Assembly (NCBI GenBank): GCA_044347345.1
Contig: JBIKUX010000005.1
Coordinates: 1 to 64,000 of the forward strand
Source: Bdellovibrionota bacterium
Lineage (GTDB): Bacteria > Bdellovibrionota_C > UBA2361 > JBIKUX01
Reading direction: 5' to 3'
Length of the DNA stretch: 64,000 nucleotides
Of the stretch, positions 4,775-28,967 are shown piece by piece. The notes under the pieces were generated by a model. It worked only from the letters and a program-made list of their open reading frames with translations. It was not told the DNA's origin and did no database searches. Position numbers and translations under genes: made by a program. Within the stretch, counting starts at the first letter, position 1. Each line of letters starts with the position of its first letter.

Positions 4775-5971
4775 ATGAGCATAAATACACCTTCTCAATC
4801 AATCAATAAATTAACCTTTAAAGATAAAATTCCATCAGAGGATGATCTAATAGCTTGGATGAAAGCTAAACTTGGAGCTGTAGTGCCCGAGGTAGAGCTT
4901 GTTGCCAAGGCTCCTCTGGTGCGGCAGATTTTACAACTAAAAAGAGACAGTGACGTTATTATTCTCGGTCACAATTATATGGAGCCTGTATTATTCCATA
5001 CTGTAACTGATTTTGTGGGAGATTCCTTAGAACTCTCGCGAAAAGCCTCAGAAACTACCGCAGAAACTATCATTTTCTGCGGTGTTAGATTTATGGCAGA
5101 AACGGCAAAAATACTTAATCCTTCACGTAGAGTATTACTTCCAGCTCGTGTAGCTGGTTGTTCGCTAGCGGCGAGTATTACGGCTCAAGATGTGCGAGAA
5201 TTAAGGTTATTATATCCAGATACTCCAGTAGTTACTTACATAAATACTTATGCTGACGTAAAGGCTGAAACAGATATTTGTTGTACTTCAGGAAACGCCG
5301 CTAAGATAATAGCTTCTCTGCCTGGTGACCAAGTCATATTTCTTCCTGATGAATATCTTGCCAAAAACTTAGCTAAGGAAACCGGCAAACGCTTCATAGT
5401 CCCACGGTATCCCCCGTCAAAAATTAAAAATAATCCTAATATTGCCGAGATAACAGTCACGATAGATGGTCGAGACGACCTTATAAGTGGCTGTAAAGAT
5501 GCATTAGGAATAGAGTCTCCGGAAGGAGATGATCACCCTCAGCTAAAATCAGTCATAGGATGGCATGGAAAATGTGAAGTCCATGATCAGTTTACAAGCG
5601 CCGACGTTAAAAACGCCCGTCGTCAATTTCCTGATGCAATTATCTTGGCACATCCAGAATGTCATCCAGAGGTAACAGAGTTGGTAGATTTTACAGGAAG
5701 CACCTCTGCAATGATTGCCTTTATTCAAGGAGCACCCGCCAAAAAAAAATATATCTTACTTACTGAATGTAGTATGGGAGACAATATTGCGGCTGAGAAT
5801 CCAGAGAAAGAAATGATTCGCTTTTGTAGCGTGAGATGTCCGCACATGAATGAAATTACCCTAGAAGATACCCTTCATGCTATGCTTACGGGAGAACAAG
5901 AAATTAAACTTGACCCTGATATTATCCAGAGAGCTCGTTCATCACTCGACCGAATGCTTGAGTTGTCATAG
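4775..5971 (+). CDS. nadA: Quinolinate synthase
   Basis: GHNY, GDSLELS, FCGVRFMAETAKILNP, AGCSLA, CTSGNA, CEVH, AHPEC, CPHM (three Fe-S Cys). ATG at 4775 preferred. Confidence 0.96.
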   Translation: MSINTPSQSINKLTFKDKIPSEDDLIAWMKAKLGAVVPEVELVAKAPLVRQILQLKRDSDVIILGHNYMEPVLFHTVTDFVGDSLELSRKASETTAETIIFCGVRFMAETAKILNPSRRVLLPARVAGCSLAASITAQDVRELRLLYPDTPVVTYINTYADVKAETDICCTSGNAAKIIASLPGDQVIFLPDEYLAKNLAKETGKRFIVPRYPPSKIKNNPNIAEITVTIDGRDDLISGCKDALGIESPEGDDHPQLKSVIGWHGKCEVHDQFTSADVKNARRQFPDAIILAHPECHPEVTELVDFTGSTSAMIAFIQGAPAKKKYILLTECSMGDNIAAENPEKEMIRFCSVRCPHMNEITLEDTLHAMLTGEQEIKLDPDIIQRARSSLDRMLELS

Positions 5972-5991
5972 AGAGATACTAAGGTAAATTT

Positions 5992-6414
5992 ATGTCTCCA
6001 CGCGTTCGAGCAATAGTGGCAACAAGAGTAAACAATTTTGACAGTAAAAAAAATTTAATCCCTCTGGCAAAACAAATAGCCAGCCAAAATCGTGAGCATC
6101 AAATAGGTGGGTTAATTTGTTATGGTAACGGGTCTTTTTTACAACTTATTGAAGGAGAGAGACTAGAGATCAGCCGAGCTCTTATAAGAATTGGCCGTGT
6201 TGCACCAGATACAACAGAGTTTTTGGGTCTTAGAGAAGTCCGTGAGGATGACATTAAATTTGAAGAATGGCTCGAAGAACCTTTCATAATTGAAAATACT
6301 TTCGCCATATTTAGCAGAGAGAGTTTTGCCCCAAATACTTTTTCGTTTTTAGTAGCTGAAGCTCTAATTACATCACTTTTTAAAAATAATCATACAGATA
6401 AGAAATGTATTTAA
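5992..6414 (+). CDS. BLUF-domain protein (degenerate)
   Basis: QNREHQIGGLI...FLQLIEG...FEEW matches the BLUF core (N..ITGxL...FxQxLEG...FxxW). The conserved N-terminal Tyr is absent. Confidence 0.7.
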   Translation: MSPRVRAIVATRVNNFDSKKNLIPLAKQIASQNREHQIGGLICYGNGSFLQLIEGERLEISRALIRIGRVAPDTTEFLGLREVREDDIKFEEWLEEPFIIENTFAIFSRESFAPNTFSFLVAEALITSLFKNNHTDKKCI

Positions 6415-13806: not shown

Positions 13807-16800
13807 ATGTTTCTATTTAGTACCCGTATACGTGCAAAAACAGAACAACCTTCTATTGCAATGTTTCAAATCAGCCCTAACCCGTCAGAAAATCTTACTT
13901 CTCAGAGCACCAATAGTAATAATTCTCACCTACCATTACCAGTCCCTAACAATTTAAATGGTTTAGACCCTGAACTTATAAAATACTATCTAAAAAATTT
14001 TTGGGACTTATTGGATACCTTTATAGTAGATGCCCAAAACAAACCTTTTTACACTTTGGCATTACAGGAAATTCAAACAAACTCATTAGCTCTTGATATT
14101 GTAATTGAATCAGCAGCCATATCAGAGCAGAATAACTATATAAACGAACTTAAAATTTATCTAACCAAGTGTTTTCTTACACAATATTGGCACCCATCCT
14201 TAGTAGAAACATTCTATAGCCTGCTAAATAAACACAACTTAGCAACTTTTTCACTAAGTGATACCTTCCAAGAGGCTCTCAGAGCTACTGCAGATTTTGC
14301 CGCCGTAAACTTTTACTCGTTAGATGATGACGAAATCCAAAAATCGTGTAGCGAAGCTTCTAGGGAACTATTCAGACTAATTGAAAGTTCCGACTCCTCC
14401 ACTCTTGATTTTCAAGGCTTAAAAACATCCATTCTAAATTTCTTAAAAGAATGGATCTCCTCTGGATGCTCTAAAGAAAATTTTTGGACATTAGTCAATG
14501 AACAAAAAATATCCCTCGTATCACCTCTACAGTGTCCTATCAAAACAGCAAGCACTGTCGAAACAGCAAGCACTGTCGTCCACCAAGAAAAACCAACTCA
14601 AGGGGAAATACAAATCCCCCCTAAGAATCTAAGACTAATACAAGGCCTAATTTTATCTTCAATCCTACGGTGGTTAAATAGAGAACAATGTGACCAAAAT
14701 GAAAATATTGGTGTTATCACTTTACCTCATGGAGCCGGCAAGACCGATTCTCTCTTAGTTCTTGGTAACCTATTACTCGCTCAAAACAAAAAAGTTGTAA
14801 TTATCGTAAGCCATGAGGGTCTTTACCCCAAATACCGAGAGCTTTGTCCAAATACAGAATTAACTACGTATAGCAAATTTGACCACCAAGAACTTGACTG
14901 CACAAACACCGTAATTCTAGCTGACGACCCCCCACCAAGATTTGCCGGTCTTGTGTCTGTTAACAGTTCAACTCATGTGGTAATTTTTACCAGTAAACTT
15001 CCTCCGCTCCAATCACCGCAAATCACTAACCTTTCCTCAGAAATAATCCCAGAGGATATTCTAAAAAAACAATTAGAATTAACATCCCCAATTTTTAACT
15101 CACCTAAAATAATTTCTACAGATAATCAATATGAAAACTTGTCTGAGCTAGCTGAAACTGCAGAAGGCAATATCGTCGTTTTTGTTAAAACTCGAAAAGA
15201 AGCTAAAGAATTGTATGAATATTTAAGGGATAAGTTTCATGTTGCCAAATATACCGGCGAAACGCCCCCAGAGCAACGTGCACTAATACTCGATAAGTTT
15301 AAGGATAGTACAAATACACCTCAGATTCTCATTGTCACTACCATCGGACAAACTCATCACCACCAATTTCCAGCTACGACTGTTATTTTTTTTGGGTCTC
15401 ACTGCTCGAACCCAGATATTCAGGAAAAACTATCCACCGTTGCAAATAGTTCGACACCGATAAATGTCATATTCTTAATTAATAAGGGAGAGCCCGAGCC
15501 ACCACTAAACCAAATTAACCGACCACCTACATTACTTAGTTTACCTGCGCAACATCTCTATCCTCACCGACCAAAGAATACCCTACAACTTACAATACCA
15601 AGTAATCGTGACACTACCTTAATCAATGAGAAAATTGGTACTAAATCGAACTCTAAAGTTCTTAATCTACCAGAAAACCTCCTCAAACTATATCGGCTCT
15701 ATTTAGGCAATTTTTTTGAAAAACTAAAATGGCTTGAATTGCTTGTTACTCTCAAAGCAGAAGAATATGTGCTTCCACAGTTTCAAATTAAGGCAAATAT
15801 CGCTGATTTTGTAATCCATAATGAGAATGGAGAACCAATCAAAGTAATAGAAACAAAATGGGGTGGAACGAATCATCAAGGAACACTCGATAATATAACG
15901 GCTCACCTCACTAAAATTATTGAAGGAATAATAGAAAAATTTGGTAACCAAACTTCTACTCCTAAATTTGAACTGCATACTTTTCAAAGTATTTCCGAAA
16001 AAAAAACAAGATTTTTTGGAGTGACTGTTAAATCTATGCATGAACAAAGTCATCCCTTAATAAAAGAACTTTTCATGCTAGTTGCCGCCGAGCTTCGTGA
16101 ATTTGCAAAAACTACTGATCTAGCAAGCCTTAAATTAATAGAAGAGCATATTGAAAAAATTATCTGTGAAATTGTTGGGATAGAATCTTTTAAAGATTTG
16201 ATAAATTTAACGGTAGATAAAAGCAAAAATAGAGATCTTACAGAATTGAGCGAAAAGTTTAACCGCCTAAAAAATTCATTGCAAAAAAATTCATCGGCCG
16301 ATTTTGATTTTACAAGTCCTATTACTCAAGAACCTGGAACAGTAACACAAGGATCTCGATTTGAAGTTCTTGAGAAATGTTTGCGAAATTCTTTACAACA
16401 TACTCTTAATCAATTGGTGTGGCCACCAAACAGTAATAGCCCTACAAAACGACAATTTAATGAGTCGCATGTAACCACAGAAATCCGTAGAAAAATACGC
16501 AGTAAGAGTTGGTTCCCCTCATCGAATACAGTGAATTATGTCACAATCAGCATTAACCAAGCTATCATATCAATCAATGCGTATTTATCTGATCCGAATA
16601 CATCGCAAACAAACCAAAAAAAATTATACTTAAAGATATCAGAGGCATTAAGCGAGCTCTCTATGATATTAAGCAAACCATTTCCGAGCCTAAGCAATGA
16701 GTTAACTAACGTTAAAACTCTAAGCGGTGCAATCAAAACTCTAAATGGCATCTCTCATAATCTCTATATATTAAAGTTTGTGATGATGACAGGTGAGACT

Positions 16801-17613
16801 TCTAATAAACGCGAAATGCATAAGAAGTTATTCTGGCTCAAGAATTGTTCAGATTTGACTGAATCTGTTGTTACGCTACTACAAGCAATAACTAAATTAA
16901 AAAATAATGAAAGGATTACTGACAATACTAGTAACCAAATGAAACAACCCCCCACTATTACTTGGAGCGATTTAACAGATTTTTTTGATAAAACTTCATT
17001 CCCAACTGAGGGGTTTCTTCAAAATGGTCAAAGCATCATGCAAGAGATGCTTGCTTCCCAAAAATTATTACTACGATTATCTGATGAAACGAAAGAAAAG
17101 CCTTGGTGGGCTAATTGGGGTAGTAGAATTAAAAACCAGATTGAATATTTATCTCCAGACCTACAAGAAGTTTTTCCCCAAATAACATTAGACAACTTAA
17201 ACAGTGCGGCTCATGTTTTAATAAGCAAAAAAGAGACCTTGGTTCTAATAAATAAGTTAGTCTCTCTACTGAGTAGTGAAAAATCTGAACCAGCAGACTT
17301 AAAAACCGAATTTGAGGAGCTCTATGCTTATGTTATTTCTTTGGACCCTGAGCAGACAGATCAGACAGAGCAGACACAAACTTCTGTGACCAAGGCTCAC
17401 ATCCTAAAGTTATTTAACTCCTTTAATAATAAACTAAACAAAACTTTTAATTTTACCAGAGGTCGAGACAATCTGGAGAATAATTTAAAACGTATGTGTT
17501 ACTATTATATAATTTATGAACTTGAAAAGTTCCAAACTGAAATTTCACCTATAACCGGCTCACCTCTTACACAACTACTTATTCAGTTACGATTGAATAA
17601 ATACGGAAGCTAA
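13807..17613 (+). CDS. Large orphan: degenerate SF2 helicase core plus PD-(D/E)xK-like nuclease motif and helical C-terminus
   Basis: Walker A LPHGAGKT (about 14720-14745); Walker B-like VILADD; helicase-C IVVFVKTRKEA...YTGETPPEQR...ILIVTT; GNFFE...IADFV...VIETK (about 15700-15860). May start at ATG 13861. Confidence 0.65.
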   Translation: MFLFSTRIRAKTEQPSIAMFQISPNPSENLTSQSTNSNNSHLPLPVPNNLNGLDPELIKYYLKNFWDLLDTFIVDAQNKPFYTLALQEIQTNSLALDIVIESAAISEQNNYINELKIYLTKCFLTQYWHPSLVETFYSLLNKHNLATFSLSDTFQEALRATADFAAVNFYSLDDDEIQKSCSEASRELFRLIESSDSSTLDFQGLKTSILNFLKEWISSGCSKENFWTLVNEQKISLVSPLQCPIKTASTVETASTVVHQEKPTQGEIQIPPKNLRLIQGLILSSILRWLNREQCDQNENIGVITLPHGAGKTDSLLVLGNLLLAQNKKVVIIVSHEGLYPKYRELCPNTELTTYSKFDHQELDCTNTVILADDPPPRFAGLVSVNSSTHVVIFTSKLPPLQSPQITNLSSEIIPEDILKKQLELTSPIFNSPKIISTDNQYENLSELAETAEGNIVVFVKTRKEAKELYEYLRDKFHVAKYTGETPPEQRALILDKFKDSTNTPQILIVTTIGQTHHHQFPATTVIFFGSHCSNPDIQEKLSTVANSSTPINVIFLINKGEPEPPLNQINRPPTLLSLPAQHLYPHRPKNTLQLTIPSNRDTTLINEKIGTKSNSKVLNLPENLLKLYRLYLGNFFEKLKWLELLVTLKAEEYVLPQFQIKANIADFVIHNENGEPIKVIETKWGGTNHQGTLDNITAHLTKIIEGIIEKFGNQTSTPKFELHTFQSISEKKTRFFGVTVKSMHEQSHPLIKELFMLVAAELREFAKTTDLASLKLIEEHIEKIICEIVGIESFKDLINLTVDKSKNRDLTELSEKFNRLKNSLQKNSSADFDFTSPITQEPGTVTQGSRFEVLEKCLRNSLQHTLNQLVWPPNSNSPTKRQFNESHVTTEIRRKIRSKSWFPSSNTVNYVTISINQAIISINAYLSDPNTSQTNQKKLYLKISEALSELSMILSKPFPSLSNELTNVKTLSGAIKTLNGISHNLYILKFVMMTGETSNKREMHKKLFWLKNCSDLTESVVTLLQAITKLKNNERITDNTSNQMKQPPTITWSDLTDFFDKTSFPTEGFLQNGQSIMQEMLASQKLLLRLSDETKEKPWWANWGSRIKNQIEYLSPDLQEVFPQITLDNLNSAAHVLISKKETLVLINKLVSLLSSEKSEPADLKTEFEELYAYVISLDPEQTDQTEQTQTSVTKAHILKLFNSFNNKLNKTFNFTRGRDNLENNLKRMCYYYIIYELEKFQTEISPITGSPLTQLLIQLRLNKYGS
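14543..14578. repeat. 18-bp in-frame tandem duplication (TASTVE/TASTVV)
   Basis: AAACAGCAAGCACTGTCG x2. Confidence 0.9.
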
Positions 17614-17876
17614 TTAACTTTATCTATCTCATTTAAAATATCAATGACTGCCTCATACAGAGTGATTGGGATATTACTTTCCACGTTCAAATTAGTAAGA
17701 GTAGGACGAAGTTCTGGGCGATAGACGATGGGTATATTATACTTTTTAGCAGTCGCAATAATAATAGAACCTATTTCATGACTTCCCTTAGCCGACACAA
17801 ACGGAGCGTCATCTACATCTTCATTAAAAGCAAGAGCTAATACTAACTTATCTGAAAGGCCTTCACCGTTTTTCAT
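17610..17876 (-). CDS. SctU/FlhB C-terminal (post-cleavage, FlhX-like) domain
   Basis: LALAF...APFVSAKG....IIATAKKYNIPIV...L...IP..LYEAV..IL is the FlhB/SctU CC subdomain. Confidence 0.88.
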   Translation of the reverse strand: MKNGEGLSDKLVLALAFNEDVDDAPFVSAKGSHEIGSIIIATAKKYNIPIVYRPELRPTLTNLNVESNIPITLYEAVIDILNEIDKVN

Positions 17877-17885
17877 TTCGAGAAA

Positions 17886-20800
17886 CTATCCTTTTACTAA
17901 AGCTTGGTCGCTTGGTTTATTTTTATTATCTAAGCCAAATTCATTAACTCTTAAGGCCATAACACGCCGAGTTACTGCATGAATCTTCCAAACATCAAAT
18001 GGCTTTCCTATGACCTCGAATCTCTCTCGATTAAGAGCTCTTATACTCTGCCAACGACCTGCCTCGTCAGAAACAAGACAAATATGCAGTGAAGGTGGAG
18101 TCCCAAGAAGATCATTAATATCAAAATGAGGATTATCAGCATAGGCGATGATAATCGCAGTAGAATTTAATGTAGCCGATACTTCAGAAATAGAACGGCC
18201 AAAAGCGACTACTACTCCCTGAGCTTCAAACCGAGTTGCTACCCTGTGCTCCTCCTCTTCTGGAAATCCTATAAGCACAACCTCAGCAACTATTCCTGAG
18301 GCAAGACGTTGAAGAGATTTTTCCTTTGAATTGATACTGCCTATTACAGCACGCGGAAGAAATACGCTAAACATTGAGCCTCGACCCGACTCGGTTGTAA
18401 CCGTTAAGTGACCTTGATGATGCCTAAGCACTGAATAAGCTGTAGACAATCCAAGACCTGCACCAGTTATGCCAATGCCGAGCCTAGAATCAACATTTTT
18501 AGTCGTAAAAAACGGCTCAAAACACCGAGATTCTTCCTCTGATGTCATTCCCTTTCCATTATCGGCTATATCTATTCGAATATAATCACCAGGAATGAGT
18601 AATCCATCAACATCACTTGGAGCTACAGCTACCTCCCCAACTGATATTACTATTCTTGGATTGTAGTGCTTATCATTTATTAAACGACCCTCAATAGCTT
18701 CCTTCGCGTTAATGAGTACGGTAGAGAAAACCTGTTGTAGGAGTTCATGATCACCGTATACTGGAAGCTCTTCATCAGGAACATTTATTTCAACTAACGT
18801 AGTAGCCCCAACAATTGTACGGTAGTAACTTGTTGATGTCTTTATTAACTCACCAATATTAACAATAGTTCTGACCTCCGGTTTGTGCGGGGAAAAGTGT
18901 AGAAGATGAGCAATTAAATTAGTGCCTCTCTCAGCAGCCGCCAGTATAGACGAGGATGCTTTGTGAATAGCACTATCTTTTGTTGCTTGCATTTCTATTA
19001 AAGACGCTTGTCCCATTACAGCCTGAAGGAGATTGTTAAAATTATGCGCTACCCCAGATGCTAAAACTCCAGCGGCTCGCATCTTCTCTGAAATAGCCAT
19101 CTTTTCCTCGAATCGTCTTGCAAGCATTACTGTTGCTAATTCTGTGGCCATACTGGAGAGCAATGGGAGTTTTTTTTGTGAAAAAAAAGCTCCTGCATGA
19201 ATTGGTTCTACTATCAATACTCCAATTGTTTGAGAAAGAGCTGTCAACGGAACAATTACCACTGCCCCTATTTCAAGAGTTCGAGCAACCCGAGATAAAG
19301 AGATACAATCTGAAGAGGAAGCTTTATCAATAATTGTGGGATTACCTGATTCCAGTACTTGTTGTAGCTGCCGCTCAGTGGAGCGCATCTCTATCCTCAG
19401 AGTCTCAAGCGATTTACGCATCCCCGGACCGACTCCAGCCTGTCCAACTAGATGGCTACCGGCTTCATTGATAACACCAAGCCACATTCTTTTACAGGCT
19501 AGTTCTTCTTGAATTATCGGAAAGGCTGCAAGTCCTATATCTCTCGGACTTAAGTGTTTTGAAACTTCATGGCTTAAACGGTAAAGCGCGGCATAAGAAT
19601 CGGCTTGTCGCTTTTGATTTAAATAAAACTCTGCACGACGTCCAGCAACACCTATTTGACTAGCGGCCGCCAACGCAAAATCAAAATCACCTTGAGTAAA
19701 TTTAAAGGCATCTGGACTATACACGGCTACTGCCCCGAGTGGCATATCTTCGTCTAATAAAGGAACAACAACAGCCGACCGAAGACCTTGCTCAGCTAGC
19801 AAAAAACCGGAATATCGCGGGTCTTTTGGCAGATCATCAATCAATACTCCTTTTCCACTCTCAATTATTGATCTGGTAAGAGACCCAGCTTGAAGGCGCG
19901 ACTCTAACATCTCGACTGTTTTAATTGGAAGACCGTGAGAAGCTATCACCTCAAGTTGTCCACTTGCTCGGTCGAAGAAAGTCACATATCCACACTGAGC
20001 TCCTGTTGCCTCAATCAAAGCATGCAATCCTCTCTCTGTTACTAACCGTGGCTCACTACCGAATTCAAGCGCTCGAGTCATCCGATATAAAGCATTAAGG
20101 CGCCTCTTATTTAACATTCGCTCGTGATCAATACGCTTGGTATCAGATACATCCGTAACTATAACTTCCCAACCTAAAAAAACCGTATCAGTCTCAGGAT
20201 TAAAATCGTCTTTTACTGACCCACTAATATGAGGAGCATCACCGTAGTGAGGGACTACCATTAAAGACAGCCACCTCATCCCACGCCCATTTGGAAGTTC
20301 TACTTGAATATCATCTTGCAATGGAATTCTAGCTAATAAATACCGCCGAAATTTGCGCATGATCTTAGCGCGATGAACACGAGGAATAAGTCGAGCAATA
20401 TCTTCATTACCTAAAAGTTTGGTTAAAATTAACGCATACGGTGGAATTCCTACAATCCGGCTCACATCTCCAGATACTGAGAGAATAGTGAGCTCAGAGT
20501 CGGTGCGTAATACAACAGCTCCAGCATAATCAATAAGCCTTTTGTACTGAACTTTTACCTCAAGTAATTTACTCTGAAAACTGCGGCGACCACTTGGTAA
20601 AATTACACAAGCAAACCGTTGACTACTTTGTTCACCCTCTCCTAGTCTAAAAATATGTACTGTATGATCACCTACGGCGGCTAACGGACCCTCTCCTCTC
20701 CAATCACATCGCTGATAGACGCTACCCTGATCTATCAAATGAGCCAAAGTTGTAAGTATGGCTTGAGCTTGAGTTCGAGATAAATATTCTTCACTAAGCT

Positions 20801-21635
20801 CCTTAAGAGAGCGTCCACAGACTGATTGAACAGGCCCAAAAAATCTTTCAAACTGCGCATTTCCCTCGAGTAAAATCCCATCTTTAGAAAGAAGAAAAGA
20901 CGGGAAAGGTACTTCGTCCAATATACGGTTCCCACTATTTGCCTCTGTTACCGGCCGTTGTATAACTTCATCAAGTTCTTTGGATACTTGACGACGCCGT
21001 AGCTTTCTTCCTCGTCCAACTACTTCTCTAAACCTTTCCTTTTGTGTGGAATCCCGTTTAGCACTATTTTTTAGCTTATGTACAAACTTACCTATCGCAG
21101 AAACACAGGTAAAAAGTTCACCTACGATATCTCCTCGCCAAACAAAGCTAGGGCTACGATTTATAAGCTGAACATACCCTAAAAGAGCACCATTATTCTC
21201 AATTGGTAGAATAGCCAAACTAGACAAACCACGCTCTACCATAGCAAGATGAAGGCTTGTAGGAGCTCCATCTATACTTGGTACAAGCAAAGGTAACGAT
21301 ATGATTGCTCCGGACAAAGCTACAACAGAATTATTACTGAAGTTCAGTGGTATTAAATCAGCGGTCAAATGAGCTCGATCATAAAGCTCATTCTCCTCTC
21401 CTAGACTGGCAAAAAAAGCGACGTGCCTGATTTCTGTTGAGGTATTTGCCGAACCAACCACTACCTCTACTGCATCTACTCCGATTCCACCAGAGATAGA
21501 TCTAGCAGCGCGAGATACCAAATCATTGAGGTCAGAGGACTGCTCAATCTCACTGAGTAAAGAGTATATAAGGTCAGTTTGTTCCTTGACCATCTGCTTA
21601 GCATTACCCCTCAGAAAAAAAAACAATGAAATCAA
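17886..21635 (-). CDS. Cytoplasmic hybrid sensor histidine kinase (GAF-PAS-PAS-GAF-GAF-HisKA-HATPase-pseudo-receiver)
   Basis: H-box GVAHNFNNLL, N-box VLINAKEA, DNGKGM, FEPFFTTK, GLGLS, C-terminal KPF; several GAF-like S-x-x-x-VPL...GAV segments; no clear TM helix. May start at ATG 21593. Confidence 0.9.
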   Translation of the reverse strand: MISLFFFLRGNAKQMVKEQTDLIYSLLSEIEQSSDLNDLVSRAARSISGGIGVDAVEVVVGSANTSTEIRHVAFFASLGEENELYDRAHLTADLIPLNFSNNSVVALSGAIISLPLLVPSIDGAPTSLHLAMVERGLSSLAILPIENNGALLGYVQLINRSPSFVWRGDIVGELFTCVSAIGKFVHKLKNSAKRDSTQKERFREVVGRGRKLRRRQVSKELDEVIQRPVTEANSGNRILDEVPFPSFLLSKDGILLEGNAQFERFFGPVQSVCGRSLKELSEEYLSRTQAQAILTTLAHLIDQGSVYQRCDWRGEGPLAAVGDHTVHIFRLGEGEQSSQRFACVILPSGRRSFQSKLLEVKVQYKRLIDYAGAVVLRTDSELTILSVSGDVSRIVGIPPYALILTKLLGNEDIARLIPRVHRAKIMRKFRRYLLARIPLQDDIQVELPNGRGMRWLSLMVVPHYGDAPHISGSVKDDFNPETDTVFLGWEVIVTDVSDTKRIDHERMLNKRRLNALYRMTRALEFGSEPRLVTERGLHALIEATGAQCGYVTFFDRASGQLEVIASHGLPIKTVEMLESRLQAGSLTRSIIESGKGVLIDDLPKDPRYSGFLLAEQGLRSAVVVPLLDEDMPLGAVAVYSPDAFKFTQGDFDFALAAASQIGVAGRRAEFYLNQKRQADSYAALYRLSHEVSKHLSPRDIGLAAFPIIQEELACKRMWLGVINEAGSHLVGQAGVGPGMRKSLETLRIEMRSTERQLQQVLESGNPTIIDKASSSDCISLSRVARTLEIGAVVIVPLTALSQTIGVLIVEPIHAGAFFSQKKLPLLSSMATELATVMLARRFEEKMAISEKMRAAGVLASGVAHNFNNLLQAVMGQASLIEMQATKDSAIHKASSSILAAAERGTNLIAHLLHFSPHKPEVRTIVNIGELIKTSTSYYRTIVGATTLVEINVPDEELPVYGDHELLQQVFSTVLINAKEAIEGRLINDKHYNPRIVISVGEVAVAPSDVDGLLIPGDYIRIDIADNGKGMTSEEESRCFEPFFTTKNVDSRLGIGITGAGLGLSTAYSVLRHHQGHLTVTTESGRGSMFSVFLPRAVIGSINSKEKSLQRLASGIVAEVVLIGFPEEEEHRVATRFEAQGVVVAFGRSISEVSATLNSTAIIIAYADNPHFDINDLLGTPPSLHICLVSDEAGRWQSIRALNRERFEVIGKPFDVWKIHAVTRRVMALRVNEFGLDNKNKPSDQALVKG

Positions 21636-22390
21636 CTAATAATGATTACTCTCGAATTTTTTACTCTCTCTTCGATAGTTTTTGACAAAAAGGCATGATA
21701 TTCAAGCTCACGCCGAGCCTTTAACGCTGGATCTCCATTATTGTCACGATACTCCTTTCGTAACTCCTCTGTTGTCATTCCGTATTTTCTTTGGAATAAA
21801 AAATTACTCACAAGAAGATCTGCCAGAGCTATTATAAGAAGAATAACAAAACACACTGTAGATCCTAACCAAACAACTACCCAAGGTTTGTAGAACCATC
21901 CGTTAGATACGTCCTTAACTTTACTCCATAACACCAAATAGAGCACAGTAGAAAAAACAATGACAAGAAAGAAATTTACAAGACCAGCAAAGACTTGCCG
22001 AAAAAATTGAGTGATCCAAGAAGAGGGATTCAATCTTTCAAGCTGAAAGGAAATAGTTTTGACCGTGATATGAATACCTGTTTGATATAAACTAAGTAGT
22101 ATTGCACTTATTCCTCCAAAAACAAGCGGAACTACCCCCAGCATAAACCAGATAACTAACAGTGGTTTAAGTGCCATTTTGATGCAAATGGACGTATTTT
22201 TCTCCATAGCAAGACACTGCAAACCTGGCTTGATGGATACCTTGGCACAATAAACCCAAATAATAAAAGTAACAGACACAACTACTATTCCGGCACATAA
22301 CGCACCGATTGCTCGAGGGCTGTTATTTACTATTCCTTTATTTCTCAACTGAGTGAGTTTATAAGTTGAAGGAGGAAAATTTTTATTCAC
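21632..22390 (-). CDS. sctU: SctU/FlhB N-terminal part (TM domain plus CN linker), ending at the autocleavage position
   Basis: PSTYKLTQLRNKG, four TM segments, LERLNP, MTTEELRKEYRDNNGDPALKARR; ends KNSRVIIIS-stop with no NPTH. Confidence 0.88.
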   Translation of the reverse strand: MNKNFPPSTYKLTQLRNKGIVNNSPRAIGALCAGIVVVSVTFIIWVYCAKVSIKPGLQCLAMEKNTSICIKMALKPLLVIWFMLGVVPLVFGGISAILLSLYQTGIHITVKTISFQLERLNPSSWITQFFRQVFAGLVNFFLVIVFSTVLYLVLWSKVKDVSNGWFYKPWVVVWLGSTVCFVILLIIALADLLVSNFLFQRKYGMTTEELRKEYRDNNGDPALKARRELEYHAFLSKTIEERVKNSRVIIIS

Positions 22391-22405
22391 TTCTTATCTT
22401 ACAAT

Positions 22406-23194
22406 TTATCTAGTAGGAAGAGATAACTTTGCATTCCCAAGCATGGTTAATAGATTGGTATCATAGGTAGCTGCTATTATTTTTTCAAAAGCTACTATTT
22501 TCTCAGAGAACAATCGTTGACAGATGCAAACTAGCAAAAGAGTGATTATGCTAGCCCGAAATATATTAAACTCTGCATTAGCCGATATTCCTGGAACTAG
22601 TTTAGAAATTATTATAGCAATACCGTCAGCCAAAAGACTCAGAAGGATTAATGGAATTAAAAAAAGAATTAGTTGAGAGATTGTTGAAGTAAGAAGAGAA
22701 ATGACTACTGAGCTTAACATCTCAAATGAGAAAACTGAACTGCCAACTCTAACAAATTTAAAACTAGTTATATAATTCTCTGCGAGTCTATGAATAGCTC
22801 CAGATAATACCAAACAAGCAAGAGTTAATTTTTCTGTATATATCGCCAGTGGAGAGCTCTCTTTATTTTGAGAGGAGAATGAATAGGGATTAAGAATAGC
22901 ACCTAAAGATGTACCGCGAAAACTATCGACTAATGCTCCGAGGACTCTACCACTTCTCAGAAAGAGAGCGATAGGACATCCAATAAGACATCCAAAAATA
23001 AATTCTTGCACATAAAGAAAAATCGACCAAATAGAGAATAATTCGCTTACTCTATTGGATGTAAAAGAATCTAAATTACCCATAGCCCAAACAGAAAAAA
23101 CCAATGCAACTGTTGCCTTTAGCGGTCCCTTAATAAAAGGGAATAAGACTAAAACCCCAAGGGCGCGCATGAACTCATACAGAGGAAATATCAT
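22406..23194 (-). CDS. sctT: T3SS export gate SctT (FliR family)
   Basis: Polytopic membrane protein; QEFIFGCLIG, GALVDSFRG, LLAD...SKLVP; lies between sctS and sctU. Confidence 0.85.
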   Translation of the reverse strand: MIFPLYEFMRALGVLVLFPFIKGPLKATVALVFSVWAMGNLDSFTSNRVSELFSIWSIFLYVQEFIFGCLIGCPIALFLRSGRVLGALVDSFRGTSLGAILNPYSFSSQNKESSPLAIYTEKLTLACLVLSGAIHRLAENYITSFKFVRVGSSVFSFEMLSSVVISLLTSTISQLILFLIPLILLSLLADGIAIIISKLVPGISANAEFNIFRASIITLLLVCICQRLFSEKIVAFEKIIAATYDTNLLTMLGNAKLSLPTR

Positions 23195-23218
23195 AACGAA
23201 GAAATTAAAGTATTTTAA

Positions 23219-23482
23219 TTATAATTCCGTTCTTCCAATAGAAGCTCCTAATTCTATTGCGTTAACTGTGAGTTGTTCAAATTTTCGCCATAACGTCGCA
23301 CTTCCAGCTAGCAACACGATAAACAGCACCACAAGTTTAATGACAAATTGAGAGGTTTGTTCTTGAACGTGAGTAGCAGCTTGAATGGCACTGACAAACA
23401 GTGACACTACACTCGTGATAATAAGAGGAACAACTCCAGCTAAAAAAAATAACCAAAGTCCATTAATTAAAAGTAGTCGCAT
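23219..23482 (-). CDS. sctS: T3SS export gate SctS (FliQ family)
   Basis: 87 aa, two TM helices, VSAIQAATHVQEQTSQFVIKL. Confidence 0.92.
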   Translation of the reverse strand: MRLLLINGLWLFFLAGVVPLIITSVVSLFVSAIQAATHVQEQTSQFVIKLVVLFIVLLAGSATLWRKFEQLTVNAIELGASIGRTEL

Positions 23483-23489
23483 AGTAGAA

Positions 23490-24146
23490 CTATTGATAAG
23501 ATAAAATCAGACTTTCAGAGAGAAGTATCCACCCGTTTGTTACTGCAAAAAGAAGTAACTTAAGAGGCAGTGCTACTAAAGTAGGGCTCACCATCATCAT
23601 TCCAAGCCCCGTCAAAAGTTGAGCTACGACTAAATCAATAATAACGAAGGGTGTAAGCAAAGCTACACCCATAAGTAACGCTTCTTTTAGTTCACTTAAA
23701 AGAAATGCAGGAATCACCTCAAACCATTTGAGAATAGATTCCTCTGGGATATCGGAATCAATGATATTCTTTTCGGAGGAATTATTTGCACGCATTCGAA
23801 TAATGAAATCTCTTTCAGACCTGCCGGTGTGACGATCCAAAAATGCAAGCCATGGAGCGAAAATATCCTTTATTTCTTGACTAGAGACCGATCCCACTCC
23901 CTTTCCAACCAGAGGTTTTATCTTAGGTAAGACCTCTTCAAAAATAGGACCCATTATAAAGCCAGTGAGAGCTAGTGCGAGTACAACTTCTGCTAGAATG
24001 CCAGGAGACTGCTGTAAACCTAAGGCATTTTTTAAGACCTGAAGCACTATAGATATTTTAAGGTAAGATGATGCTACACCAAAAATTATCGGAAACACTG
24101 ACAACAAAAACGCTGCAGAAAGTAAGGTTGTAGGCTGAAAATTCAC
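23490..24146 (-). CDS. sctR: T3SS export gate SctR (FliP family)
   Basis: SYLKISIVL..LKNALGLQQSP, PAFLLSELK, PFVIIDLVVA..L.GLGMMMVSP..VALPLKLLLF...GW. No FliP-type signal peptide. Confidence 0.95.
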   Translation of the reverse strand: MNFQPTTLLSAAFLLSVFPIIFGVASSYLKISIVLQVLKNALGLQQSPGILAEVVLALALTGFIMGPIFEEVLPKIKPLVGKGVGSVSSQEIKDIFAPWLAFLDRHTGRSERDFIIRMRANNSSEKNIIDSDIPEESILKWFEVIPAFLLSELKEALLMGVALLTPFVIIDLVVAQLLTGLGMMMVSPTLVALPLKLLLFAVTNGWILLSESLILSYQ

Positions 24147-25030
24147 TGATCCTCTACTACTTTAAATGAAACCATTTTTAATGAATGATGCCTACAAATT
24201 GCAGCAAACCTTTGCACTATTGTATCTGAACTGTTTTTAAGAGATTTGCTCGAAGAACGAAGTATCAATGAGACACCACCGGAAAATGGCATCCCTAAAG
24301 TTATAATTACTTCTTTGCCACTTGGTAAAGTGTAACGGAGAGATACTGTCTGTAACAGCTTGCTAGCTTTTTGAATCAATTCATTAAGCTTTTGAACGAT
24401 AAAAATCATATCCCTTGAGGTCGAGGGATTCTCTGATTTTAAGAAGGTATAAAAATTTAAATTATGAAAATTAGCCTGATTTTTCTCTTCGATAATTTCT
24501 CTTTTCTTGTATAACAACTGTTGTGATTGTTTAATGCTGCTTTGGAGATGCTCGCTTCTTTTACTGCTTAAAAGAATTTGATTCTGTTGAAGTTTTAATT
24601 CTTGGTTCAGTTCGTTTTCTTTATTATTTATGAAACCAACTTTATCCGCTAAGTTGTTAAGAATCGTCAGATTGCGAGAAATAAAGTTGGGTGATTTACG
24701 CGCTAAATCAATGACTAAATCTCTGTGTTCGAGATTTTGAGTGTGTTCGAGATTTTGAGTGTGTTTTTTTCCAATTAAGATCGGTTTGATAACATCATCG
24801 TAAATTTGTTGCTGCGAAAGCCTTATTTTCTCACGATCATAAGTCAGATTTTCAATTTTTTTTCTTAACCTAAACAAGTGTTGTTCTTGTTGTTTTTTAA
24901 TAACAGAGTTTTGACGAAATCGTAAAGAACGTATAAAAATTTTGCGGGCTATTGATTCTTGTGATGTAGTCATAGGTATATTTTCAGTAAAATTTGCAGT
25001 GTTAGCAGTAAATGTCGTCATTGCTAACAT
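24143..25030 (-). CDS. Probable SctO (FliJ-like coiled coil) fused to an SctP/FliK-like C-terminal T3S4 domain
   Basis: About 150 aa of Q/K/E/L-rich coiled coil, then a beta-beta-beta-alpha-beta-like tail (VSLRYTLPSGKEVIITL...VSLILRS...LKMVSFKV); occupies the sctO/sctP position upstream of sctR. Confidence 0.5.
   Translation of the reverse strand: MLAMTTFTANTANFTENIPMTTSQESIARKIFIRSLRFRQNSVIKKQQEQHLFRLRKKIENLTYDREKIRLSQQQIYDDVIKPILIGKKHTQNLEHTQNLEHRDLVIDLARKSPNFISRNLTILNNLADKVGFINNKENELNQELKLQQNQILLSSKRSEHLQSSIKQSQQLLYKKREIIEEKNQANFHNLNFYTFLKSENPSTSRDMIFIVQKLNELIQKASKLLQTVSLRYTLPSGKEVIITLGMPFSGGVSLILRSSSKSLKNSSDTIVQRFAAICRHHSLKMVSFKVVEDQ
24724..24765. repeat. 18-bp in-frame tandem duplication (HTQNLE x2)
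   Basis: TGTGTTCGAGATTTTGAG x2 plus a partial copy. Confidence 0.9.
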
Positions 25031-25359
25031 CCTTGATGTAATCTACGAACCAGCCCGGAAACTGAATCAGATATTTTTGAAAATAATTCAACTTGCACCT
25101 GCATTTCTCCTACTCGCATTTGCAGTGAGAGTAGTTCTTGAGGGGAGAAGTTTTTTCCTCGTTTTACTTGCTCTCCCAACTTTGATAATTGGGCTTGGTT
25201 TTTTAACATAGTCTTAAATATCGAGTTTAAGTCTTGCTTAAATGTTTTTAAATTGGATGATGGTGTGGCTCTGGGTACTGTCGAAACCGATGGAAGGCTC
25301 GATAGTTGAAACGATTTTTCTGCTACCGAATTAAGTGATTGCAAAGGGATTACAGACAT
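25024..25359 (-). CDS. sctI: T3SS inner-rod protein (SctI; EscI/YscI/HrpB family)
   Basis: C-terminal FSPQELLSLQMRVGEMQVQVELFSKISDSVSGLVRRL; S/P/T-rich N-terminus; GAGG RBS. Confidence 0.75.
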   Translation of the reverse strand: MSVIPLQSLNSVAEKSFQLSSLPSVSTVPRATPSSNLKTFKQDLNSIFKTMLKNQAQLSKLGEQVKRGKNFSPQELLSLQMRVGEMQVQVELFSKISDSVSGLVRRLHQGC

Positions 25360-25434: not shown

Positions 25435-25875
25435 TTATTTATCTGGGGAGTTTAATCGCAGTTTGGCTAATTGGGATAATACTACCTGCTCGTTCCAATC
25501 TCTCTGTTGCGAGAATGTTGGACGGAGCAATGCCGCAAGTATAGGTAATATCAATCTTTTGATAAAAACGATAAGTGGCCCAACGAATCTTCTATGGGAT
25601 GATACGAGCGGAGATAATAATTCTGGTTCCCAATTTTTTGCCAAAGCCCTAAGATTTTCAAAAGCATAGGTGTCATTACCATCTAGTTTCCATGCTAGCT
25701 CTTTTAACCGTCTGTTTGAAATATTAACTATATCCCGCTCAGTAAATTGGCCATGTAATAACCGTTGACTCACTGAAGATTTCAAAGATTCCGATATATT
25801 ACTATTTTGGCACCCGTTTATTACTAGCCACACGGTAGCTTTAGAAGTGGAGAGCGTATCAGAAGATAAGTCCAT
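25435..25875 (-). CDS. Hypothetical protein
   Basis: 146-aa ORF. SSHRRFVGPLIVFIKRL...QQRDWN resembles segments seen on surface-polysaccharide methyl/glycosyltransferases. Confidence 0.55.
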   Translation of the reverse strand: MDLSSDTLSTSKATVWLVINGCQNSNISESLKSSVSQRLLHGQFTERDIVNISNRRLKELAWKLDGNDTYAFENLRALAKNWEPELLSPLVSSHRRFVGPLIVFIKRLILPILAALLRPTFSQQRDWNEQVVLSQLAKLRLNSPDK

Positions 25876-26985: not shown

Positions 26986-28830
26986 CTACTCTACTGTAAC
27001 ACTTTTAGCCAAATTTCTAGGAAGATCGACGTCAGCACCATTTAAAACAGCGATATTATAGGCTAATAACTGAAGCGGTACTGTCATTGCTAACGGAGAA
27101 AGTAACTCAGACAAATGCGGAGTTTCGACTATATAATCCGCTAAATTAGCTAATTCAGGATGTCCTTCGGTGTCTGTAACAGCTATAATAAGTGCTCCGC
27201 GTGATTCTACCTCGCGAAGATTAGAAAATGTTTTTTCAAACAATTCAGAAGGAGTACGGGGTAATAAAACAACTACTGGAACATTATCATCGACTAAGGC
27301 AATAGGCCCATGCTTTATTTCACCAGCAGGATAACCTTCAGCATGAATATAAGATATTTCTTTAAGTTTTAACGCTCCCTCTAACGCAATTGGGTAACAA
27401 AAGCCTCTACCTAAAAACAGATAATCACGAGCCTTGTAGGTAGCTTGGGCAATCTGCTCAATCCTTGCCTTATTACGCAAGATATCATCAATAGCCGCAG
27501 GAACATGTAAAATTGCATTTATTGCTTGAGCTATAGAATCTGCCTTAATAGAATTACGTTCTTGAGCAATATAGAGTGCTAAAAGATAACCTGCTATTAA
27601 TTGAGTGATAAATGCCTTAGTTGATGCCACACTAATTTCAGGTCCAGCATTTGTATAAATAGTATTTTCAACCTTTCTGGTAAGTGAAGAACCCACTACA
27701 TTGCAAATAGCTAGAGTCATCGCATGCGGTCTTGCCCTGTCGACCGCAGCTAATGTATCAGCAGTTTCTCCTGATTGAGAAATCGCCAATACAAGCGTCG
27801 ATGGAGATAGAATAATATCTCGGTAACGAAATTCAGATGAGTAATCAACCTCTACGGGAATTCCAGCAAATCTCTCAATGTAAAATTTTACCATTAAACC
27901 AGCATAATAAGCTGTACCACATCCTACTATAATAATTCTATTTATCGCTAATAAGTCATTTTTTCTCTCGTTGAGCTCAGAAAGGTTAACTCTTGAATAT
28001 GAACTATCAAGTTTTCCAATTAAAGTATCGCTTACTACACTACCTTGTTCATAGATTTCTTTTGACATAAAGTGCGGAAAGCCACCTTTCTGAGCGGTAA
28101 CTGGATCCCACGTTATCTGCTGAATAGTCCTATCTATTATTAATCCAGAGTTTTCTATAATAACCGAAGAAGACGTAACTGTGGCCAAATCTCCATCTTC
28201 TAGAATAACAACTTTCTTGGTATGGGATAACACTGCCGGAATATCGCTAGCAATAAAATTTTCATCCTCGCCAAGGCCTATGACAAGAGGAGTACCAGTT
28301 TTTGCGACAAAAATACGATCAGGAGCATTGAGATCAAGAACAAGAATTGCATAACTGCCTCTCAAGCGACTACATGCATCACGAACGGCACAAATAGTGG
28401 TTTTACCCAATCTAATCTCTCTACTAATTAAGTGAGCAGCTACCTCAGTATCGGTCTCAGATAAAAAAATTGCTCCTTCTCTCTGCAATTCTTCCCGCAG
28501 CTCAGAATAATTTTCAATTATACCATTATGAATTATGCTGACTGAGTCAGCAGAGTGAGGATGAGCATTTTCTTGAGATGGCTTTCCATGAGTAGCCCAC
28601 CTAGTGTGCCCGAGACCTATTCTGGCTGATCCAGAAATTTTTTTTTGGAGTTTTTCTATCTCTTGCTTCAGTACGTTTAACTTACCTTTAGCTCTTACTA
28701 CCTGAAGGACACCATTATCAACAATTGCTACTCCAGCTGAGTCGTATCCCCGATATTCAAGTTTCTCCAGACCACTTAGAATCACTGTTAGCGCATCTCC
28801 TGACCCAACGTAGCCCATGATTCCGCACAT
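26986..28830 (-). CDS. glmS: Glutamine-fructose-6-phosphate aminotransferase
   Basis: MCGIMG N-terminus, LEYRGYDSAG, GHTRWATHG, SQSGETADT, PRNLAKSVTVE. Confidence 0.98.
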   Translation of the reverse strand: MCGIMGYVGSGDALTVILSGLEKLEYRGYDSAGVAIVDNGVLQVVRAKGKLNVLKQEIEKLQKKISGSARIGLGHTRWATHGKPSQENAHPHSADSVSIIHNGIIENYSELREELQREGAIFLSETDTEVAAHLISREIRLGKTTICAVRDACSRLRGSYAILVLDLNAPDRIFVAKTGTPLVIGLGEDENFIASDIPAVLSHTKKVVILEDGDLATVTSSSVIIENSGLIIDRTIQQITWDPVTAQKGGFPHFMSKEIYEQGSVVSDTLIGKLDSSYSRVNLSELNERKNDLLAINRIIIVGCGTAYYAGLMVKFYIERFAGIPVEVDYSSEFRYRDIILSPSTLVLAISQSGETADTLAAVDRARPHAMTLAICNVVGSSLTRKVENTIYTNAGPEISVASTKAFITQLIAGYLLALYIAQERNSIKADSIAQAINAILHVPAAIDDILRNKARIEQIAQATYKARDYLFLGRGFCYPIALEGALKLKEISYIHAEGYPAGEIKHGPIALVDDNVPVVVLLPRTPSELFEKTFSNLREVESRGALIIAVTDTEGHPELANLADYIVETPHLSELLSPLAMTVPLQLLAYNIAVLNGADVDLPRNLAKSVTVE

Positions 28831-28967
28831 ATTTCGCCTCAATAAAAATAGGACTTAACCAAAGATTAGTTGGCTTATATTGTTAATTATTTACCGATAA
28901 TGCAAACAAACCTAAAAATCGTGTCCCCTCTTTCATTATTTATCTCACAAGTGTATTACTTAAGTAT

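Follow-up and report, generated by a model that had tools for sequence, protein, structure and literature searches.

An sctU gene split at the autocleavage site of its product, with a sensor histidine kinase gene between the halves, in the non-flagellar export-gate operon of an uncultured bacterial lineage

Autocleavage of the switch protein SctU, or FlhB in flagella, is among the steps that define type III secretion and is much debated, and whether the act of cleavage or its product matters is an open question. Here we describe an operon from a genome labelled Bdellovibrionota (GenBank assembly GCA_044347345.1) that is built from known protein families and is new in that sctU is split at the NPTH cleavage site, with a sensor histidine kinase gene between the two halves. 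The operon lies in a stretch of 64,000 nt, positions 1 to 64,000 of contig JBIKUX010000005.1 (contig C4 below), which we refer to as the window. With the injectisomes (Ysc/Psc, Mxi-Spa) it shares its protein families, the gene order P-(Q)-R-S-T-U, a short SctR N-terminus and a PscP-like switch domain. In contrast to these systems, SctU is here encoded by two genes, lacks NPTH and has a kinase between its parts, sctQ, N, O, V, J, D, C and F do not belong to the operon, and neither a secretin nor a needle was found in the host genome. In the main texts of the open-access literature, supplements excluded, we found no description of a natural sctU or flhB gene split at NPTH, or of a kinase inside sctU.

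The locus is the closest natural analogue of the split FlhB and HrcU constructs made in the laboratory and of stand-alone FlhB-like C-domains. Similarly to Xanthomonas HrcU_C, the H. pylori 'spare part' HP1575 and the TIGR00789 proteins, its C-terminal half corresponds to the CC cleavage product; those organisms, as far as excerpted accounts describe them, keep a full-length, self-cleaving FlhB or SctU, whereas the non-flagellar system described here has no full-length copy and the split is its natural, conserved form. Excerpts of a study of HrcU report that its C-domain, supplied in trans, restored pathogenicity, with the authors' conclusion that the result of cleavage and not the event is what matters, and cite the same for HP1575 of H. 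pylori (PMC3040844).

An annotated SctU of 265 amino acids (aa) on plasmid pRspN324c of Rhizobium sp. N324 (Rhizobium etli-type, Rhc subgroup III-like; positions 5266-6063 of locus L128) is also devoid of the C-domain, but its end falls before the strand that precedes NPTH, no C-part is encoded within 3.5 kb and no kinase gene follows. In chlamydiae, the type III genes are found at several places in the genome, and an FlhA paralogue has a sigma-28 gene as its neighbour. The system described here is likewise dispersed and has a FliA-like sigma factor gene adjoining a SctV paralogue; by its public label, its lineage is not chlamydial. The chlamydial CdsU is listed as a single protein (Table 1, PMC3574062), and for the Rhizobium etli-type family the same article discusses split secretin genes, not a split SctU.

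The T3SS* of Myxococcus xanthus, in the excerpts consulted, lacks needle, secretin and translocon (PMC12075869, PMC10849154) and is encoded in one large cluster, mxan_2434-2464 (PMC12075869). Like T3SS* and the Tad-like Kil system, the system described here is non-flagellar, has no dedicated secretin, needle or translocon that could be found, and belongs to a lineage with a Tad-joined SctV; unlike T3SS* as published, its parts are scattered, and the Tad link belongs to a second set of genes (C55/C45, below) and not to the window operon. Reviews, again as excerpted, restrict the pairing of Tad/Kil with T3SS* to one myxobacterial suborder, the Cystobacterineae (PMC10849154, PMC12428579). In the lineage studied here there are two non-flagellar type III sets for which neither secretin nor needle was found, and one of the two is joined to a Tad operon; if its Bdellovibrionota label is right, this restriction would need widening.

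The operon occupies positions 17610-25359 on the minus strand and consists of eight co-directional open reading frames (ORFs), which encode, in order, a SctI-like protein, a SctP-like protein, SctR, SctS, SctT, the N-terminal part of SctU (UN), the kinase and SctU's C-terminal part (UC). These coordinates, and the tight packing with overlaps of 4-7 nt and gaps of 7-24 nt, agree with the original prediction, which was made from the window alone. SctI and P overlap by 7 nt and P and R by 4 nt, followed by gaps of 7 nt between R and S, 24 nt between S and T, 15 nt between T and UN, and 9 nt between the kinase and UC. UN and the kinase overlap by 4 nt if the first TTG is taken as the kinase start; the Atlas record places that start 14 codons later.

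UN (21632-22390, minus strand) is 252 aa long, matches positions 2-256 of the 335-position Bac_export_2 profile (E 2e-29) and contains the membrane domain, the linker and the strand preceding the NPTH site. UC (17610-17876, minus strand; 88 aa) matches positions 263-333 of the same profile (E 9.1e-12), and its best NCBIfam match is the FlhB-like TIGR00789 (E 9.5e-15). Pfam thus bears out the earlier assignment of the three genes as sctU(N)-kinase-sctU(C), which had neither placed the break at the autocleavage site nor noted its occurrence throughout the lineage. The window UN ends in '...SRVIIIS', which aligns directly ahead of NPTH in the 371-aa flagellar FlhB of the same genome, and UN at 19 window-type loci of relatives finishes at '...SKVIIV(E/D)', in the alignment right before the NPTH position of FlhB; the alignment holds the window, these 19 loci and, as a 21st row, the shorter N-part of a second-set locus (L062). 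Aligned with the same FlhB, UC of the window and of the 19 relatives starts a few residues ahead of the next strand, and none of the aligned UN and UC sequences from these window-type loci contains NPTH. A profile of 29 UC matches post-cleavage chains, namely FlhB (3b1s_B, E 1e-20), chain B of EscU, YscU and SpaS, with alignments that begin at their residue 3. Because the ends of UN and UC align to the flanks of NPTH and the UC profile fits the chain B structures, the gene boundary reproduces the autocleavage boundary, and the two SctU polypeptides, as predicted from their genes, equal the products of normal NPTH autocleavage.

This end point recurs widely. When 1.84 billion representatives were searched exhaustively with a profile, the 150 top-ranking UN matches were all 193-290 aa long with a common profile end, and they stand for at least 150 distinct clusters at 50% identity. 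A homologue search with UN alone returned itself and one relative at 75%, and a search with the UN alignment returned eight truncated proteins followed by flagellar FlhB of 358-377 aa. Within the host genome, Bac_export_2 matches only FlhB, UN and UC.

The gene between the halves (17886-21635, minus strand) encodes a cytoplasmic sensor histidine kinase of 1249 aa, counted from the first TTG, with Pfam PAS, two GAF, HisKA and HATPase_c domains. Its core, residues 485-1096 in the window (GAF-GAF-DHp-CA), is conserved across the lineage; the N- and C-terminal regions diverge widely among relatives, and the C-terminal tail is variable. The kinase has the H-box histidine and the N, G1 and G2 boxes of the HisKA type, with H864, N976, D1025/G1027/G1029 and G1060/G1062 invariant in 32 kinase sequences; its catalytic residues are intact. 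Searches with the kinase returned only generic kinases in the Atlas and, in a related-locus search of genome contigs, only two unrelated kinases. A complex prediction for the kinase core (485-1100) with UN residues 200-252 and UC gave a score of 0.00, a value that, with controls not run, has no bearing either way.

To place the arrangement in its lineage, we compared 40 loci of relatives from the phylum-level group of the host (124 genomes, one class), of which 20 belong to its order and 20 to other orders; the order-level set is made up of the 19 window-type loci (L043-L061) and the second-set locus L062. UN, kinase and UC are contiguous in 34 of the 40. Of the remaining six, one has UC at a distance of 2.7 kb, two show no UC (in one case at a contig end), two have UC right after UN with no kinase, and one has an unrelated 502-aa ORF after UN. 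Of 37 loci, 28 have no more than 60 nt between UN and the kinase, and the kinase and UC genes share 4 or 8 nt at 14 of 35 junctions. Two families have a much shorter kinase (551-579 aa) that shares the catalytic core only. The eight frames are unbroken in the window, as they are in most of the 40 relatives, and synteny, which the original prediction had proposed as a check, shows conservation rather than decay. The UN-kinase-UC arrangement is kept across the whole phylum-level lineage, at a divergence that leaves UN only about 20-30% identical.

The three remaining gate subunits are encoded directly upstream of UN. SctR (23490-24146, minus strand; 218 aa) matches Pfam FliP (E 6.7e-46) and scores 172 bits with the NCBIfam EscR/YscR/HrcR model against 133 bits with FliP. 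It was said earlier to lack the FliP signal peptide, and its N-terminus is indeed short: 39 residues precede the NALGLQQ motif, compared with 38-41 in five injectisome SctR references and 74-108 in FliP. The motif itself, earlier taken as an injectisome-like mark, is not diagnostic on its own, because Azospirillum FliP reads SALGLQQ. SctS (23219-23482, minus strand; 87 aa) matches Bac_export_3 (E 2.7e-12), with 45.8 bits for the NCBIfam SctS model against 35.9 for FliQ, and SctT (22406-23194, minus strand; 262 aa) matches Bac_export_1 (E 9.8e-14) and NCBIfam SctT (E 1.4e-16), with no FliR model among the NCBIfam matches listed. Overall, NCBIfam scores place Sct models above Fli models for R, S, T and the N-part of U.

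The products of the first two genes of the operon give sub-threshold sequence matches. The SctI-like inner-rod protein (25024-25359, minus strand; 111 aa) is assigned on sub-threshold and family-wide matches: to Pfam T3SS_basalb_I (PF17001) at E 2e-4, with 22 bits against a cut-off of 32, and to NCBIfam SctI models (NF038054 among the rod criteria) at E 0.006-0.009. Among its orthologues from relatives, 11 of 21 match PF17001 below the cut-off (best E 1.2e-5), which is the sole recurring family, and the C-terminal helix is conserved. The SctP-like protein (24143-25030, minus strand; 295 aa), a putative ruler and substrate-switch protein with a helical hairpin and a C-terminal T3S4-type domain, matches no Pfam family at E<=0.01, while six of 15 orthologues weakly match FliK (PF02120, best E 0.0036). 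For its AlphaFold (AF2) model (predicted local distance difference test 73), the top two Foldseek matches in the PDB are the substrate-switch domain of PscP (5cuk; E 1.8e-4, template modelling score 0.75 on the target) and the C-terminal domain of FliK (2rrl; E 1.2e-2). The family profile gave nothing meaningful against PDB sequences, and hhalign aligned it weakly with the FliK of the same genome (E 0.0063, probability 6%). Judged by its modelled fold, this ORF is SctP-like with a T3S4 domain at its C-terminus; of the earlier label 'sctO/P', which left a SctP identity open, the P part is the one that these fold matches uphold.

Other type III parts are located elsewhere in the host genome (2.53 Mb, 68 contigs, 95.8% complete). 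Whole-genome family searches gave no match on C4 to FHIPEP, FliI/YscN, YscJ_FliF, secretin or FliMN_C, in line with the reported absence of sctV, sctN, sctQ, sctJ and sctC near the gate. Outside the window, the same genome has two non-flagellar SctV (FHIPEP), two SctJ, one SctN and SctQ-like genes. A genome-wide search for sctV, sctN and sctJ, as suggested earlier, therefore finds all three, and of the proposed 'reduced or dispersed' machine the dispersal stands while the reduction holds only in part. Locus C7 encodes a FliA/WhiG-like sigma factor, SctJ, a 205-aa ORF, a 119-aa ORF, a 632-aa SctV, a TPR protein and a 104-aa ORF. The ORF in the SctQ position of C7-type loci has a FliN-type domain in relatives (29.8 bits in G013, E 4.8e-4 in G014); the host's own 205-aa ORF has no FliMN_C match. 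Locus C3 encodes MurJ, a weakly FliH-like (SctL-like) protein of about 200 aa and the only non-flagellar SctN, a unit that recurs in relatives.

A second gate is found at locus C55 (L019, 3292-10467), with FHA/SctD-like, SctJ, SctQ-like (340 aa; FliMN_C E 4.9e-6), SctR, SctS, a probable SctT (T'), a truncated SctU (U') and a TPR protein. Its SctU N-part homologue is missed by Pfam and recognised by hhalign (99.2%, E 1.7e-19). A 97-aa ORF of this locus was considered as a UC homologue and ruled out (hhalign E 0.21). Across this locus and the C55-type sets of relatives (L098-L104, L082, L062, L155), the SctU N-part homologue measures 173-240 aa and the next ORF, of about 85-97 aa, is unrelated to UC. 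Pairs of FliA-like sigma factor genes occur just downstream of the C55-type set in L098, L100, L101, L104, L155 and L062. Together with the one that lies ahead of SctJ in the C7-type locus, they hint that both non-flagellar sets may be under sigma-28-style control. At locus C45 (L021, 1090-12003), the gene for a 740-aa non-flagellar SctV comes last in a Tad operon and shares 11 nt with tadC, in the order PP2C, FHA, Ser/Thr kinase, TadZ-like, Flp, x, TadA, TadB, TadC, SctV. A survey of 41 genomes at order level found three FHIPEP types, and at least three FliP-family matches in 33 of the 41.

The earlier observation that secretin and needle are missing extends to the whole genome. The two secretins belong to a type II secretion system locus (GspC/D/E/F/G) and to a type IVa pilus locus (PilMNO-PilQ), and no type III secretin was found in the 95.8% complete assembly. 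Needle proteins are short and divergent. The best match to the needle family SctF (PF09392) across the genome has an E-value of 0.61, a search that divergent short proteins may escape; small ORFs near the TPR chaperone gene on C7 are without family assignment.

The window gate is distinct from that of the flagellum, for which the host genome has separate genes (FliP, FlhB and FlhA on C63; FliF and FliI on C54). In a SctR/FliP tree of 66 rows, built by a quick method, with many long branches and 33 of 63 inner branches open, the seven FliP of the lineage and three reference FliP form a clade (Shimodaira-Hasegawa-like approximate likelihood ratio test, SH-aLRT, 99), with all 40 window-type and 11 C55-type rows outside it. 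The original prediction had allowed for a flagellar origin, and for a relic without sctV or sctN and with decay in relatives; window-type SctR falls outside the FliP clade, both genes are present and the relatives' loci are conserved. Two genomes, G020 and G032, keep UN-kinase-UC though they have no flagellar-type FliP or FlhA. The same two and G018, all of the same order, have neither flagellar-type FliP nor FlhA and keep both non-flagellar sets. That the system represents a separate new subfamily, as proposed earlier, is plausible; the tree leaves the placement of window-type SctR relative to the five injectisome references unsettled.

We lean towards reading the window operon as encoding the export gate and switch for one of the two non-flagellar machines that exist beside the flagellum, with a SctU that is split, pre-cleaved and linked to a kinase. 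The last strand of UN would dock into the 88-aa UC and rebuild the usual SctU cytoplasmic domain; such non-covalent reassembly is plausible because trans-complementation with HrcU works in the excerpted study (PMC3040844). The switch would be held permanently in the 'cleaved' state, competent for switching, and the T3S4 domain of the SctP-like protein would address this pre-cleaved switch. The remaining parts would be supplied from elsewhere, most likely SctJ, the SctQ-position protein and SctV from C7 and the SctL-like/SctN pair from C3. Because SctI and SctP are present and a dedicated secretin is absent, the machine may build a short, length-controlled axial structure. The kinase would be made together with the two halves and might couple a cytoplasmic signal to the switch, or the state of the switch to phosphorylation, which is the least supported step.

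Here a reaction was removed while its product was kept stably in at least 150 clusters. As an answer given by evolution this favours the product, and the split SctU provides a ready-made system to test the act of cleavage against its product. The fixed place of a sensor kinase between the halves suggests a so far unexplored coupling of signalling to the switch. It is a doubtful but conceivable extension that the kinase, being made between the two halves, is a docked gate subunit on the switch domain, either reading the switch state (SctP engagement, substrate class) into phosphorylation, with the machine as a contact or secretion sensor, or gating the switching by a GAF-bound cytoplasmic ligand. 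Were this true, the docked kinase would stand for a kind of regulation new to type III secretion and conserved throughout an uncultured, probably predatory lineage.

Several points weigh against the reading of a kinase-linked, pre-cleaved switch in a machine with parts from C7. SctD, SctC, SctF, SctO, a gatekeeper or a translocator could not be assigned to the window set, and the 8-10 kb around the operon are free of SctV, J, N, Q and D in all of the 20 order-level loci. The identities of SctI and SctP consist of sub-threshold sequence matches plus one fold match, and we infer the binding of UN to UC and the contact of the kinase with the machine from gene data. No cognate response regulator was identified for the kinase. 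Two families (G022, G012) have UN and UC without a kinase, which makes the kinase dispensable at that position. In two lake metatranscriptome libraries, short contigs of 99+% identity span both borders of the kinase gene, with UC (17740-17925) and with UN (21597-21891); as a sign of expression they are a hint, being assembled from libraries that may carry DNA. With regard to the choice of SctV, the C55-type R-S-T'-U' genes of G039 stand head to head with a C7-type J/Q/V locus, and four draft genomes with no detected window-type UN still carry a C7-type SctV. One of these four has a UN fragment at a contig end, a sign of an assembly gap, so co-absence is uninformative as a test of the SctV partner.

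The kinase-less families and the missing regulator or contact also suit an explanation that we regard as unlikely, if less so than the others considered here: that the kinase is a passenger, an unrelated gene that landed long ago in sctU and has no tie to secretion. The break would have been harmless at that site because SctU cuts itself there anyway, and the kinase could have been retained because its removal risks uncoupling UC from the operon. That SctU C-domains work in trans, as excerpted from PMC3040844, agrees with this, and so do the widely varying kinase termini and the two families that share only the catalytic core. What speaks for selection instead is that the kinase has stayed in place at 34 of 40 loci while UN has diverged so far, with junctions that are tight and often overlapping. 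Gene order rarely persists over such divergence in the absence of selection. It is highly improbable that the operon is what remains of a decaying injectisome or second flagellar gate, with sctU disrupted by an insertion. The unassignable secretin, needle and SctD, the scattered genes and several highly divergent proteins could be read that way, but the eight frames are intact here and in most of the 40 relatives, the catalytic residues of the kinase are invariant, at least 150 UN clusters share an end point, the split precisely preserves both structural halves, and non-flagellate members retain the operon.

A further rival concerns the partners of the gate. The window gate could belong with the Tad operon in a composite contact-dependent killer, comparable to Kil plus T3SS* of Myxococcus, and use the C45 SctV or C55 parts. 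In its favour, this second type of SctV ends the Tad operon in the host genome and in 14 of 14 relatives (L072-L085), and the genome has only one non-flagellar SctN. The truncated SctU of C55 has no C-part of its own, so that set could borrow UC, and the neighbourhood in G039 shows that pairings are not fixed by position. This composite is nevertheless quite unlikely: C55 carries its own R, S, T', U', J and Q, and in G001 a C55-type set directly follows the Tad-linked SctV. The single-contig genome G040 has both the C55 set and the Tad-SctV but none of window-type SctR, window-type UN and C7-type SctV. Since C55 also has its own D and adjoins the Tad-SctV in G001, J, Q and V of C7 are left for the window gate, and we consider it probable that the window operon and C7 form one system and the C55 set and the Tad-linked SctV the other.

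Beyond the operon, a conserved 146-aa ORF (25435-25875, minus strand) has homologues close to the operon at 10 of the order's 19 window-type loci, of which at least one (L054) has it on the opposite strand, and its membership of the operon is uncertain; it matches no Pfam or NCBIfam family and only unnamed Atlas clusters. A 618-aa ORF follows at 26986-28842. On the other side, a 1268-aa low-complexity ORF (13807-17613, plus strand) is convergent with the operon and overlaps the 3' end of the UC gene by 4 nt; it has only a faint helicase-like match (E 0.0018). Scans for promoters and terminators gave no more than chance would (27 where 22.6 were expected, and 6 where 6.8 were). Contig C3 also encodes a 636-aa flagellin (L022, 14736-16646, minus strand) in which six FG-GAP-like repeats separate the N-terminal from the C-terminal flagellin domain. 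DNA of the host genome is found repeatedly in lake-water metagenomes.

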